Source: Synechococcus sp. (GTDB taxonomy: Bacteria; Cyanobacteriota; Cyanobacteriia; Thermostichales; PCC-7336). Taken from it: 11,227 bases of DNA. Positions 1,445 to 10,565 of the stretch are shown piece after piece. The stretch's first letter is position 1. Each line of letters opens with the position of its first letter. The stretch lies in assembly GCA_051439425.1 (NCBI GenBank), contig JBFRWD010000079.1, positions 1-11,227 of the forward strand, read 5' to 3'. The translations under genes were made by a program, and so were the position numbers. The notes below the pieces were generated by a model that made no database searches, was not told the DNA's origin, and saw only the letters and a program-made list of their open reading frames with translations.

Positions 1445-2273
1445 GGGCGTGTCATCAGTTAAGCCAGATGACGGAAGCTGCTAAATATATTGCTCCAAGG
1501 AAGCGACGAGAGGTTTTGTCGCAGCGAGTAGCAATGGCTCGGTACTGCTTAAGCTTGGCAAAAAAGTTCTCGATCGAATGACGAGCTTTATAGAGATGCT
1601 TGTCATTAGAGTGGGGAGATTTGCGACTGGACTTGGGTGGAATCACCGCAACACATCCCTTTGCTTTCAATCGCTGACGGACACGTTCATTGGAATCGTA
1701 GGCGTTGTCCCCAAGCACCGCCTCCACCTCATCATCCAGTTTCTCTAGCAAGACATCAGAGCCCTGCAAATCATGCTATTACCCAGCGGTGAGGTGAAAA
1801 CCTGTCAGGTTTCCCAAGGCATCGCAAGTGGCATGAATCTTGGTGCTCAACCCTCCTTGACTTCGTCCGATCGCTTGCTCGATTCCATCTTTTTTGGGGC
1901 TCCAGCACTCTGTTGATGGGCGCGCACAATGGTGGCATCAATCATGGCGTATTCGTTATCTGCATCTTCGGCCAACACCTTAACTATCTTTTCCCACACA
2001 CCGCTGCGATTCCAACGGCTAAAGCGAGTGTGGACCAATCAAAAATCTCTAAAGCGTTCCGGTCAGTCCTGCCAGGGTATCCCTGCCCGATAGCGGTAAA
2101 AGACTGCATCCACAAACAGCCGATTGTCCTTGGCTGTGCCACCCACATGCCCTTCGCGTCCAGGGAGAAAGTCCGTTATCCGTCCCCATTGAGCGTCCCG
2201 CAGCCCGTAGCGACGCATCTCACACCTCGTTTAGGGCTCTTTATGACACATTTGTTTGACTGATGACACGCCC
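1445..2273 (-). mobile_element. IS5-family insertion sequence (IS427-like, two-ORF frameshift type), 829 bp, probably non-autonomous
   Basis: Terminal inverted repeats GGGCGTGTCATCAGT (1445-1459) and ACTGATGACACGCCC (2259-2273). Flanking TA at 1443-1444 and 2274-2275 within a CTAG context. IS5-type transposase remnants inside. The exact boundary depends on whether the target duplication is TA or CTAG. Confidence 0.93.
1455..2218 (-). pseudogene. IS5-family transposase pseudogene (orfA/orfB joined by -1 frameshift, four premature stops)
   Basis: Manual translation from ATG 2218: MRRYGLRDAQWGRITDFLPGREGHVGGTAKDNRLFVDAVFYRYRAGIPWQD*PERFRDF*LVHTRFSRW...IDATIVRAHQQSAGAPKK. Then A_AAA_AAG at 1895-1889 and the -1 frame DGIEQAIGRSQGGLSTKIHATCDALGNLTGFHLTAG**HDLQGSD...GDNAYDS...RHSIENFFAKLKQYRAIATR...IWLN*. 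Stops at 2063-2065, 2039-2041, 1779-1781 and 1776-1778. Confidence 0.92.
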
Positions 2274-3231: not shown

Positions 3232-3323
3232 AGGTTTCGCGTTTACGGCGCATCATTAGCGCACTTAAGTATCAGATCAAGATCCTGTACAGGTTCAACG
3301 TCACGATTGACTCATGTTTTTAG

Positions 3324-3361
3324 AAAAAGCCAGCTCGTTCACCCGAGCTGGCTTTTGTTTT
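3324..3361. terminator. Bidirectional intrinsic terminator between convergent genes
   Basis: AAAAGCCAGCTCG-TTCACC-CGAGCTGGCTTTT is a perfect 13-bp inverted repeat (3325-3356) with an A-tract before and a T-tract after. Confidence 0.88.
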
Positions 3362-3379
3362 AGATTTGATGTCCACGTC

Positions 3380-4036
3380 TTAGGGTGAAACAGTAATATC
3401 CACAATTTTGGCTTCCGAGCGATTGATGCGTTGGATTTCGTGACCGAGGCGATCGAACGACACAGAGTATATCGTCAAGGCATGACGCATACGAGCTCCC
3501 TTTAACCCCGTTATCTTAATCGTGAACACACGATTTCTATTCAAATATTGCGGAGCTAGTTGCCGATCGTCTGGTTTTAATGGGGAGCGATCGGTCTTCT
3601 GGGGTATGACAGACGGCGGTGCTGAAATCGCTACTTGAGAGGTTCCTGGATCTGTCAGCCGAACCGAAGGGTGATGTGCATTTTCAGGCGAGTTTGCAAA
3701 TGACTTAGAGCACTCCTTGCGGTTTTTTTGGGTAACTGGGGAGCGATTGGCTGAGGAATCAAGAGAAGGTGCAGGTGTAGTAGAAGCGACGGGGCTCGAG
3801 GCCTTGGACTTGCGTTTCGCAGAACGGGTAGAGGCTTTAAGAGGCCTCTTAACAGATACCGGCTGGGTTGTGGTTAGCAGCTCCATCACCTGTCGAGCTT
3901 GAGATTTAGTAATGGTGCTGGAAGCAGAATTAGCGTGAATCCCCACCTGTTTGCAGGCATCGAGAATCGGGTTGCAATTGTCCAGTCCAAGATCTTTTCT
4001 TAGGCTGTAGATCCTCACCTTCTTCATCACCATCAC
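3380..4036 (-). CDS. Two-domain protein: IF2 N-terminal-like domain, low-complexity linker, C-terminal CpcD/allophycocyanin-linker-like domain
   Basis: N-terminal KKVRIYSLRKDLGLDN..ILDACKQVGIHANSASSTITKSQARQV resembles the cyanobacterial IF2 N-terminus (KVRIYELSKELNLDN...CxxLxI..KSHSSTI). C-terminal RVFTIKITGL...RMRHALTIYSVSFDRLGHEIQRINRSEAKIVDIT resembles the CpcD domain. The start could be 4036, 4033 or 4027. Confidence 0.75.
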   Translation of the reverse strand: MMVMKKVRIYSLRKDLGLDNCNPILDACKQVGIHANSASSTITKSQARQVMELLTTTQPVSVKRPLKASTRSAKRKSKASSPVASTTPAPSLDSSANRSPVTQKNRKECSKSFANSPENAHHPSVRLTDPGTSQVAISAPPSVIPQKTDRSPLKPDDRQLAPQYLNRNRVFTIKITGLKGARMRHALTIYSVSFDRLGHEIQRINRSEAKIVDITVSP

Positions 4037-4307
4037 CTAGATGTGGAGTTAAAGGGACAGATAAAAGTGCCCTTGCAGATTATTATTACTCCGTCAAAAA
4101 AGAAGGCGCTGCCTCTGTTTACTAAACGTTGAGATTGGTGGGATCGCTATTCATCAGTCGATTGACTGATTGCCTCTGAGGAAATGAGTGATGACTGTAG
4201 ACTCGTTTCGATTGCCAGTTGACAGATTATCGTCGCTACTAGCTAACACTAGATGTGGAAATATGTGCTCGCTGAAGTGCTTGCAATCTGAGGTATAACC
4301 GGATTGA

Positions 4308-4336
4308 TTGACGTAACCCAATCGCAACTCTAAGAT
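4308..4336 (+). promoter_or_regulatory. Predicted sigma70-type promoter for the ABC transporter operon
   Basis: TTGACG (4308-4313), 17-bp spacer, TAAGAT (4331-4336), 75 bp upstream of ATG 4412. Confidence 0.6.
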
Positions 4337-7587: not shown

Positions 7588-10565
7588 ATGGTTTCGCCAG
7601 CAAAAAATCGCCAAGTTTACGAGGCAGCCACTCAATCTATTGGCCATGAATTACTAGCGGCAACGCGATCGCCAACAGGGTTAGTCGCCCAACTGCAAGA
7701 ACAATTGCGCTGGGACGATCGCTTGCTGGGCTGGATGATGGACAATCCCCATCTGCGGGTGCAGTTGTTTCGGCTGATTGATTGCCTCCCCTCTCTGAGC
7801 GATCCGGCGGACATCGCCCGCCACTTGCAGGAATATTTAGTGAATCCGGCAGTAGAGCTTCCACCCGCTCTGAAATCGCTGCTTGAATTCCCCCAGCCCA
7901 ATTCCATTCCCGGTCGTCTGGCAGCAACCACCTTTACAACCGCAGTAAGCGCGCTAGCGCGGAAATACATTGCCGGAGACACCATCGAGCAAACGCTGCA
8001 GACGATCGCGCGACTGCGAAAAAACAACCTGGGATTCACCCTCGATCTGTTAGGGGAAGCTGTGGTGTCGGAAACCGAAGCGCAACAGTATCTAGAGCAC
8101 TACTTGGAGACAATGGCAGCGCTGAGTCGGGCTGCAGCATCATGGGCAGAGGTGCCGGACGTGGATCGAGCCGATGGTCAACAACTGGCTCGTGTCCAAG
8201 TATCGGTCAAGCTGACAGCGTTTTATTCCCAGTTCAATCCCTTGGACGTAGAGGGGAGTCGGAACGGGGTGGGAGATCGCATTCGCACCTTACTCAGGCG
8301 GGCGCGAGAGCTCGGGGTCGCGGTGCATTTCGATATGGAGCAGTACGCCTACAAATCCCTGACCATCTCGATCTTGCAAGAGTTGCTGATGGAGGAGGAA
8401 TTTCGAGATCGGGACGACATCGGAGTAACCCTGCAGGCGTACTTACGAGATAGCAAAACAGATTTGCGGAGCTGGATTACATGGGCTAAGCAGAGAGGCA
8501 CACCGGTAACCGTGCGCTTGGTGAAAGGGGCCTATTGGGATTCGGAAACTATCCATGCCATCCAGAATCACTGGTCACAGCCGGTGTTCAACAGTAAGGA
8601 GCTAACGGACTCCAATTTCGAGTGGCTGACTCAGGAGCTGCTAGAACACCACGAATATCTGTACGCAGCGATTGGCAGCCACAATGTCAGATCGCAAGCC
8701 AAGGCAATCGCGATCGCCCGCGAACGACAAATCCCGTCTCGACACATCGAACTGCAGGTGCTGTACGGTATGGCGGATCCACTAGCCAAAGCACTGGTTG
8801 GGCAAGGAATGCGAGTCAGAATTTACGCCCCCAGCGGCGAACTTATTCCTGGCATGTCCTACTTAATTCGACGATTGCTGGAGAATACAGCCAATACGTC
8901 TTTCCTCAGGCAACGGGTGGGCAAGGTTGCTGACGATGTTTTATTGGCCGAGCCTGACGAGCACCAAACGGAGCAAGCGCTAGCAGAGTACGAGCCGCAG
9001 TTCGAACAGGCTCCTCTGACAGACTTCAGTCAAGTTGACGCTCGCGACCGTGCTCTTGAGGCAATACAAACTGTTAGGCAGAAGTTGGGTCAAACGTATC
9101 GCCCGTTGATTGATGGAGACTGGATCGATACCGATCGCCAAATCCTGTCGCTCAACCCCTCCATGCCATCCGAAGTGGTGGGACAGGTCAACCTATGCGG
9201 CCTGCCAGAACTGCAACGAGCGATCGCAGCGGCAACAGCAGCTCTGCCAGTTTGGAGGGCAACAGCCGTTAGCGAGCGATCGGCCCTCCTGAGACGGATC
9301 GCAGATCGTATGCAAGCTCGACAGGCCGAGCTTGCCGCGTGGATTGTGCTGGAAGTAGGCAAACCCCTGAAGCAAGCTGATGCGGATGTCGCCGAGGCGA
9401 TTGATTTCTGCCGCTATTACGCCTTCGAAATGGAACGGCTGGAGGTGGGAGAACGCTACGATCTACCCGGCGAAACCAACCGCTATCGCTATCGCTCTCG
9501 CGGCATTACCGCCGTCATCTCCCCGTGGAATTTCCCTCTCGCTATTCCCACCGGCATGACGGTAGCCTCGCTAGTCACGGGCAACTGCACAATTCTGAAA
9601 CCCTCTCAGCAGTCTTGCGTCATTGCCGCCAAGTTTGCGGAGATTGTGGCAGAGGCTGGCGTACCGTCTGGGGTATTCCAGTTTGTGCCGGGCTCGGGCT
9701 CGGAAGTGGGCGCTCGTTAGTTCGCAGTCCGAACGTGCATACGATTGTGTTCACTGGATCGCAGCAAGTGGGGTGCGAGATTTATGCAGAGGCGGCGGTG
9801 CTGCAACCGGGACAAAACCATCTCAAGCGAACCATTGCGGAGATGGGAGGCAAGAATGCCATCATTGTGGATTCCAGTGCAGATATAGACAAAGCCGTGC
9901 AAGGGATTGTGCTGTCTGCGTTTGGGTATAGCGGTCAAAAATGTTCCGCTTGTTCGCGAGTTATTGTCTTACAGCCCGTTTACGACGAGTTCGTTCGGAG
10001 GTTGCTCGATGCAACGCGCTCCCTGTCGGTGGGTCAAGCAGATTGGCCGGGGACGGTTGTTGGCCCCGTCATTGAGGAGGCATCTCAGCAGCGAATTCGA
10101 GAGGCGATCTCCGCCGCTAAGGCGGAAGCTACGTTGGCTCTACAATTACCGGCCCCCGATGACGGCTATTTTGTTGGGCCGAGCATATTTGTTGATGTAG
10201 CCTCTAATTCCGATCTCGCGCAACAGGAAATCTTCGGGCCGGTGCTGGCAGTCTTGCGCGCAGAAACGTTTGATGAAGCGATCTCCATTGCCAATTCGAC
10301 CCCTTACGCATTGACAGGCGGTCTGTACTCGCGAACACCATCTCACATCGTGCAAGCACGACAAGACTTTGAGGTGGGCAACCTATACATTAATCGGTCC
10401 ATTACTGGGGCGATTGTGGGGCGGCAACCGTTTGGCGGCTTCAAGTTGTCTGGAGTGGGCTCGAAGGCTGGCGGATTGGACTATTTGCTACAATTCCTGG
10501 AACCCCAAACCGTGACGGAGAACGTCCAACGACAGGGCTTTGCCCCAATCGAGCCAATCCAATAG
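7588..10565 (+). pseudogene. putA: Bifunctional proline dehydrogenase / P5C (glutamate semialdehyde) dehydrogenase, frameshifted at ~9717 (pseudogene or sequencing error)
   Basis: PRODH motifs (DLLGE, SVKLT, FDME, RLVKGAYWD, SHN, YLIRRLLENTANTSF) and the first half of the ALDH domain (ISPWNFPLAI) lie in 7588-9720. FTGS, EMGGKN, GQKCSAC, EIFGP and QPFGG lie in the -1 frame to 10565. Adding one base gives a ~992-aa protein. Confidence 0.93.

Follow-up and report, generated by a model that had tools for sequence, protein, structure and literature searches.

The CpcD domain (Pfam01383) is known as the plug by which ferredoxin-NADP reductase (FNR) is hung on the phycobilisome. In the structure determined by cryo-electron microscopy for the CpcL-type phycobilisome (CpcL-PBS), FNR's CpcD domain is described at the rod's distal end, on the Pfam00427 domain of CpcC2, free CpcD is reported to bind in the same way, and the remainder of FNR is given as invisible on its flexible hinge (PMC10322944). 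As for translation initiation factor 2 (IF2), its Domain I has been reported to bind NusA in E. coli by pull-down, in-cell photo-cross-linking and single-molecule tracking, and in an AlphaFold 3 model the N1 module (residues 1-50) and the next two strands face the KH2/AR1 region of NusA (PMC12297416). Here we describe a gene in which these two modules are joined in a single 215-aa protein, consisting of an IF2_N-like head at the N terminus, a disordered basic tether and a CpcD domain at the C terminus. The gene lies on the minus strand of an 11,227-nt stretch of DNA from Synechococcus sp. (GTDB lineage Bacteria; Cyanobacteriota; Cyanobacteriia; Thermostichales; PCC-7336), namely positions 1 to 11,227 of contig JBFRWD010000079.1 in assembly GCA_051439425.1, and this whole stretch is referred to as the window throughout. 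The architecture is confirmed to be genuine, selected, rare and undescribed in the literature searched. The original prediction knew of no characterised protein of this kind, and the searchable literature, which leaves subscription journals uncovered, holds no description of the two-domain arrangement; NCBI has only given the family the automatic name 'phycobilisome linker polypeptide'.

Homology of the head to the extreme N-terminal module of IF2 is established in both sequence and fold. On aa 1-49 of the window protein the Pfam profile IF2_N (PF04760) scores 16.5 bits (E 0.007), below the gathering threshold of 25.3 bits. Despite this sub-threshold score the homology holds, because IF2_N is matched at E <=0.01 by 10 of the 11 family members, because one of these (P0006) passes the cut-off with 27.0 bits, because a profile built from nine family sequences and run against all PDB sequences finds residues 1-63 of Thermus thermophilus IF2 (4kjz_A) at E 1.4e-7, and because the folds superpose. 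In an AlphaFold2 model of the 215-aa protein, built on an 11-row alignment, residues 1-54 have a predicted local distance difference test score (pLDDT) of 92-95, and Foldseek lays the head on the IF2 heads 4b47, 4b44 and 4kjz with a root-mean-square deviation (rmsd) of 1.4-2.1 Å over 50-53 residues at 36-38% identity. The VIA structure search likewise returns IF2 (4b3x, Z 8.5), and in addition a series of winged-helix neighbours, namely pSK1 Par (8csh_A, Z 7.5, rmsd 2.0, 50 residues) and RacA (5i41_B, Z 5.5), followed by MerR, GlnR, TnrA and TorI (Z 3.9-4.5) and the B5 domain of PheRS (Z 3.9). No Pfam helix-turn-helix family matches anywhere in the 215-aa protein.

The net charge of the head across the 11 family members is +4 to +7, whereas cyanobacterial IF2 heads are near neutral, and its family-specific conserved surface (C18, P20, T40-K41 and Q43-V47) differs from theirs, the residues C18, P20, K41, Q43, R45 and Q46 being invariant in the family and not those of cyanobacterial IF2 heads. 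In a tree of 11 fusion heads and 25 IF2 heads (53 columns) the fusion heads form their own clade with support of 98/97 and are not nested within the IF2 of their own genus; since the alignment has only 53 columns, the tree does not settle the donor. Since surface and charge differ from those of IF2 heads, the partners of IF2 (NusA, the ribosome) need not carry over to the fusion. C18 and C25 (window 3953-3976, minus strand) are invariant in 11 of 11 family members, C25 being common to most cyanobacterial IF2 heads and C18 specific to the family, and the two may have a redox or metal role. A separate 571-aa protein, P0012, has four tandem IF2_N repeats (Pfam 129.7 bits) and has no GTPase domain, so that IF2_N serves as a modular unit elsewhere as well.

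At the other end of the protein, Pfam CpcD (PF01383) matches aa 165-212 (bases 3392-3535) with 32.3 bits (gathering threshold 27, E 1.3e-7), and a search of the genome's contigs with the same profile finds C79:3392-3535 at 34.9 bits. The domain is matched at E <=0.01 by 10 of the 11 family members, and among PDB sequences the family profile picks out CpcC, CpcD and FNR from solved phycobilisomes by their CpcD domains (E 2.3e-6 to 0.02). The model folds residues 165-215 at pLDDT 76-93 into strands 167-173 and 184-190, helix 191-203 and strand 207-214, and net charge across the 11 members is +4 to +8. The best Foldseek match of the model is the CpcD domain of FNR in the CpcL-PBS (8hfq_m), followed by CpcD chains; the probability is 1.00 for 8hfq_m, 8tro_d and 7sc8_BN, with E values of 3e-3 to 8e-2, and no row reaches E <=1e-3 because the query was the whole chain. 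The VIA search matches the tail to CpcD domains with Z values of 5-6.1 and an rmsd of 2.0-3.4 across 48-54 residues, the top matches lying inside phycobilisome cryo-EM structures. Most of the rod-type signature is kept, including the lead-in N-x-x-(K/R)-x-F, which reads YLNGNRVF in the fusion and YDNTGKRF in the rod linkers of the same genome. In a tree of 36 CpcD domains, from which the 134-aa fusion of G002 (length filter) and the truncated P0007 were left out, the fusion tails form a clade of their own (support 100/99) among rod-type CpcD domains, and their sister group is not settled. We therefore name no donor for either head or tail, since both trees leave the donors unsettled.

The 106-aa tether between the two domains has a pLDDT of about 46-53 and no secondary structure in the model. 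Its length ranges from 25 to 119 aa across the 11 family members and its charge from 0 to +17, being at least +9 in 9 of the 11. With +4 in the head, +11 in the tether and +6 in the tail, the whole window protein has a net charge of about +21.

The original prediction, of an IF2_N-like block and a CpcD-like block joined by a disordered basic linker, is thus borne out by Pfam, the PDB profile, AlphaFold2 and Foldseek. The model alone, which it had proposed as a check, gives two folded end domains that match the IF2 head and CpcD folds in Foldseek and VIA, and the profile scan it called for gave a score above the cut-off for CpcD and below it for IF2_N in the window protein. Its statement that the protein is not infB also holds, as no GTPase domain is found with Pfam or NCBIfam. 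Its statement that the IF2 N-terminal region contacts the ribosome needs correction, in that the only experimentally shown partner found for the extreme N-terminal module is NusA, in E. coli, as reported in PMC12297416.

The gene is real and is maintained by selection, as seen from the constraint on both ends of the protein, from synteny, from the Shine-Dalgarno sequence and 5′ region and from the terminator. We compared the proportions of nonsynonymous (pN) and synonymous (pS) differences in four orthologous coding sequences, those of G000 (the genome of the window), G001, G002 and G003. Differences at synonymous sites have reached saturation or nearly so (pS 0.53-0.91), whereas pN is 0.15-0.34 in the head (pS 0.53-0.82) and 0.15-0.33 in the tail (pS 0.66-0.91). 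Both end domains are under purifying selection, and the tether is not; it evolves fast (pN 0.47-0.84), although its alignment is unreliable. All 37 invariant columns of the first homologue alignment fall in the two end domains. The gene adjoins, divergently, the same ABC substrate-binding gene in each of the four genomes of the genus, and the G003 locus has ycf34 and the DUF3155 gene in addition.

The translation start is almost certainly ATG 4027 on the minus strand, because eight homologues open with M(K/R)KVRIY and because a conserved Shine-Dalgarno sequence stands 5 nt upstream; this motif is the N terminus of 8 of 8 homologues in a word-indexed search. The minus-strand open reading frame 3380-4036, which would give 218 aa from GTG 4036, is hence correct in frame as first proposed but not in its start. 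Over the 136 nt upstream of the start the four species have a mean column identity of 75%, with 51 of 143 columns invariant, whereas the synonymous sites of the gene are far more diverged (pS 0.53-0.91).

The layout is found in a narrow range of organisms. An exhaustive HMMER search of 1.84 billion representative proteins gave 384 matches at E <=1e-3 and eight at E <=1e-10, of which seven have the two-domain layout (P0002, P0004, P0006, P0007, which is truncated, P0009, P0010 and P0011) and the eighth is the four-repeat protein P0012; the weaker matches inspected were four IF2 N-termini and the CpcD proteins P0026 and P0131. Homologues of the same architecture thus exist, as the original prediction required, and the family comprises at least 11 distinct 90%-identity clusters. 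All four species-representative genomes of the window's genus have it, that of Synechococcus sp. PCC 7336 among them, and none of 37 other relatives does (0 of 3 genomes from the family's other genera, 0 of 23 in the sister family, 0 of 11 in other families). Among 400 further genomes from across the phylum, with eight candidates scored per genome, it was found in none, the sole extra match being an IF2 of 1046 aa (frame length). Frames of 156-356 aa in the sister family that looked like standalone IF2_N proteins are N-terminal ends of IF2, truncated at contig ends, N runs or frame breaks. A scan of the genome collection gave the same two loci again, a metagenome scan added only two further short contigs, and ESM Atlas gave IF2_N clusters only (score 0.82, below the lead level of 0.9). 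A phage origin is not supported, since 98 pattern matches in viral contigs yielded 0 confirmed relatives.

How does the fusion compare with the systems described? It shares with three-domain FNR (FNR-L, also FNR3D or PetH) a Pfam01383 domain, a flexible positively charged hinge and a cargo domain, but the order is reversed, with the cargo at the N terminus and the anchor at the C terminus, and the cargo, about 54 aa long, is a module of the IF2N type rather than an FAD/NADPH enzyme. The PetH profile (NCBIfam NF045929) scores 10.3 bits on the fusion (cut-off 600), on the CpcD part only. With the rod-capping linker CpcD (L_R 8.9-10) it has in common the domain family, the fold and the expected docking site, whereas CpcD is about 70-90 aa long and consists of the domain alone, and the fusion adds about 160 aa upstream. 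The bacterial IF2 N-terminal module (IF2N or N1), to which the head is homologous, is likewise followed by a disordered P/S/A/K-rich region, but at 215 aa the fusion has neither the GTPase domain nor the C-terminal fMet-tRNA-binding domains of IF2 (no Pfam or NCBIfam match), and its head is more basic, forms its own clade and has family-specific invariant residues. A separate infB is present in the window's genome as a 1132-aa frame on contig C8. The fusion is not a CpcC/CpeC rod linker either, having no PF00427 match at E <=10, and it stays far below all cut-offs of the NCBIfam equivalogs for CpcD, PetH and RNase E.

FNR is without the N-terminal CpcD domain in all six genomes of the order that were examined (G000-G004 and G016): the PetH profile covers only positions of about 96-411, in frames of 308-326 aa, the one in the window's genome being G000:C178:54341-55249 (plus strand). 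The same genome harbors a 152-aa orphan, G000:C85:12956-13411 (minus strand), in which a beta-barrel of about 78 aa at the N terminus is joined by an A/S/T-rich linker to a CpcD domain. By hidden Markov model score this CpcD domain is the nearest in the genome to the fusion tail (43.6 bits, rod linkers <=27.5). The model of the orphan has a mean pLDDT of 67, its barrel resembles PilZ domains and phage neck proteins with middling Z values (<=7.8), and no cyclic di-GMP motif was seen in the barrel. It is about 40% identical to proteins of Thermostichus and of Synechococcus sp. JA-3-3Ab (in the latter P0167) that have also been named phycobilisome linker polypeptide automatically. Orphans of this type resemble the fusion in having an N-terminal cargo, a low-complexity linker and a C-terminal CpcD domain, and differ from it in that the cargo is a beta-barrel instead of an IF2N module and in that they are spread across the order, not confined to one genus.

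The reading that we favour, as somewhat better than an even proposition, is that of a three-part phycobilisome accessory protein, docked by its CpcD domain and displaying an IF2N-type head. The tail would insert into the cavity at the centre of a rod phycobiliprotein hexamer and sit against the Pfam00427 domain of the rod linker, like free CpcD and the CpcD domain of three-domain FNR, and a flexible tether, variable in length and strongly basic in most members, would keep the head at the periphery of the antenna. This would amount to the FNR-L design of anchor, hinge and cargo in reverse order and with a new cargo. Docking to the phycobilisome is most likely, to judge from the behaviour of every characterised Pfam01383 domain, and it would fit the context, because FNR has no CpcD domain in the six genomes and because the order has a second cargo-linker-CpcD protein. 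The head, with its MerR-like fold of winged-helix type, is most likely a binding module for an acidic partner, which could be nucleic acid or a component of transcription or translation such as NusA, although which of these it would be is speculative.

Several observations weigh against this. Docking has membership of the domain family as its only ground. The CpcD score exceeds the cut-off by only 5 bits, the PCC 7336 orthologue is borderline (25.2-27.1 bits), and the equivalog for rod-capping CpcD (NCBIfam NF058509) scores 21 bits at a cut-off of 80. The GGK motif of the last strand, present in the rod-linker, small-linker and orphan domains of the same genome, is S-E-A-K in most fusion members, and the docking surface could thus have changed. 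As to the head, the window protein's own IF2_N score is under the Pfam cut-off, and the conserved alpha3 surface TKSQARQV is unlike cyanobacterial IF2 heads. Its Z values to DNA-binding winged helices are middling, at a level common in VIA searches, and the putative recognition helix has, by its sequence, no obvious DNA-reading basic residues. The two most divergent family members have short tethers of 25 and 42 aa with charges of 0 and +2, so that a long basic tether is not essential. Lastly, no more than one genus-level clade has the family, and its function is therefore not part of general phycobilisome biology.

A further step would be that the fusion couples the antenna to gene expression, the head and tether capturing, on the surface of the thylakoid, NusA-RNA polymerase, a ribosomal subunit or nascent RNA/DNA, or acting on them after release from degrading antennae. 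We consider this proposal improbable as it stands, although as a hypothesis the bridge to ribosomes or nucleic acid that the original prediction suggested is attractive. NusA of the window's genome is a 444-aa protein with an acidic tail. A complex prediction of head residues 1-62 with this NusA (17-row alignment) gave no answer (0.00 and 0.00, with the mark at 0.32, no controls) and weighs neither way; a 2026 preprint reports only a weak correlation between the length of the IF2 extension and that of the NusA tail (10.64898/2026.02.08.704698). The distance between nusA and the fusion gene is about 2.7 kb in G001 (G001:C17:203667-208201), a proximity that we take to be coincidental, as the two are about 1.4 Mb apart in G002 and on different contigs in G000 and G003. 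If the coupling were true, transcription or translation would be tied to the state or location of the antenna, which is undescribed for any phycobilisome component, and through a head that recruits NusA, ribosomes or nucleic acid the phycobilisome would for the first time be physically linked to gene expression. Otherwise the fusion would still add a CpcD-anchored cargo of a third class and offer an independent test, made by nature, of what the IF2 N-terminal module binds. In either case the plug known for hanging FNR on the antenna would here be reused for a module of the translation/transcription-coupling type, in a deep-branching lineage whose FNR has lost it in all six genomes examined. 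The question is open to direct testing, since the orthologue WP_156820110.1 is present in Synechococcus sp. PCC 7336, a strain in culture.

Among the alternatives, the one that survives best is an antenna-internal linker that caps or terminates rods, with a head and tether that recruit no outside cargo; such a protein might limit rod length, bridge neighbouring phycobilisomes, or touch a photosystem or the thylakoid surface, which is acidic. The CpcD domain of the fusion is of the rod type, and a protein that is basic in all three parts would suit the acidity of phycobiliprotein surfaces and of thylakoid lipids. The tether is free to vary in length, as a spacer would be, and the databases file the family under phycobilisome linker polypeptides. 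We regard this explanation as unlikely, though worth keeping in view, for a bulky cap would need neither a head as conserved as the anchor nor one of clear homology to a translation module, and the head is unrelated to known linker domains, as the absence of a PF00427 match indicates. Capping is, moreover, already served, as at least one genome of the genus, a complete one, has an ordinary CpcD with a 70-aa frame beside the rod linker. Because of this related genome, and because the assembly is fragmented, we do not claim that the window's genome is without a canonical small cpcD.

It could also be that the protein has nothing to do with the antenna and is a basic soluble binder of nucleic acid or ribosomes, derived from a 5′ fragment of infB, in which a CpcD-like fold is re-used for another contact. 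HMMER alignments to IF2 fragments do continue past the head into the P/S/A/K-rich region, spanning profile positions 3 to about 140, and the net charge of about +21, the DNA-binding winged helices among the structural neighbours of the head, the altered GGK motif and the position of the gene outside any cpc/apc operon would all be consistent with such a reading. However, the head tree does not nest the family in the IF2 of the genus, and a recent infB fragment is thus not supported. The tail is under strong purifying selection with its rod-type signature kept, and its best non-antenna structural matches reach only Z <=4.5, as opposed to 5-6.1 for those of the antenna. Every characterised Pfam01383 domain, going by PMC10322944 and the PDB matches, sits inside a phycobiliprotein ring. 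On balance this second alternative appears improbable.

That the gene is a young functionless chimera or an annotation artefact, as its narrow range (all four genomes of a single genus, with no occurrence outside it) and the unsettled donors in the head and tail trees might suggest, is highly improbable, since the selection data come close to refuting it, both domains being kept (pN 0.15-0.34) at synonymous saturation, and since position, Shine-Dalgarno sequence, 5′ region and terminator are conserved and at least 11 distinct 90%-identity clusters exist.

The coordinates of the gene, its domains and its signals are collected in the table below.

Table. Parts of the fusion gene and adjoining signals (positions are those of the window; strand as given, with a point for the bidirectional hairpin).
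Feature	Position	Strand	Basis or remark
Coding sequence, 215-aa IF2N-tether-CpcD protein	3380..4027	-	coding 4027-3383, stop 3380-3382
IF2_N-like head, aa 1-54, beta-alpha-alpha-beta-alpha, net charge +4	3866..4027	-	Pfam, profile, model, pN/pS
Disordered tether, aa 55-160, S/P/A/K/R-rich, net charge +11	3548..3865	-	model and composition
CpcD (Pfam01383) domain, aa 161-215, beta-beta-alpha-beta, net charge +6	3383..3547	-	Pfam, profile, model, pN/pS
Shine-Dalgarno sequence AGGTGA, 5 nt upstream of ATG 4027	4033..4038	-	sequence; GGTGA invariant in four aligned species
Conserved 5′ region, probably promoter and leader	4028..4147	-	four-species alignment
Intrinsic-terminator-like hairpin, bidirectional, GC-rich 13-bp stem, A/T-run flanks	3325..3356	.	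sequence and terminator scan

The conserved 5′ region contains the blocks GCGATCCC, TAGTAAACA, TAATAATA(A/G)T and ACTCCACATCTAGGTGA, and the alignment suggests that it probably holds the promoter, although a consensus scan detected no promoter within it. Consensus patterns for NtcA (GTA-N8-TAC) and HLR1 (direct TTACA repeats) had no match in the four upstream regions. The terminator-like hairpin lies 24 nt beyond the stop codon and is common to the convergent DUF3155 gene; the scan lists it on the plus strand, and on the minus strand the stem is followed by TTTTTCT. The neighbours of the gene are ycf34, DUF3155, a broken IS5-type transposase, an ABC transporter (a PF04392 binding protein with permease and ATPase) and putA, with no cpc/apc or other antenna gene among them, and the early description of a standalone gene with its own terminator outside these operons therefore stands. 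Rfam has no matches in the window, and the 12 sequencing runs listed as matching window 3300-4150 are all DNA or guessed to be DNA, with no RNA run among them; one of the 12 may come from the source sample itself.

A few minor features of the window may be added. The motif GGTTATACC(N)CA (4281-4300), located in the intergenic stretch between the divergent genes, is kept in all four species; it adjoins the predicted promoter of the ABC transporter operon (4308-4336) and may be a regulator site common to both divergent genes. The IS4/IS5-type transposase gene (DUF4096 and DDE; 1455-2218, minus strand) is present as three frame fragments between a UPF0047 gene and ycf34, and within the stretch examined it has no counterpart at the syntenic G003 locus. 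The putA gene (proline dehydrogenase / pyrroline-5-carboxylate dehydrogenase; 7588-10565, plus strand) is split into two overlapping frames, 7588-9720 and 9525-10565, its aldehyde-dehydrogenase domain being broken at profile position ~190-198 by a frameshift or an assembly error.

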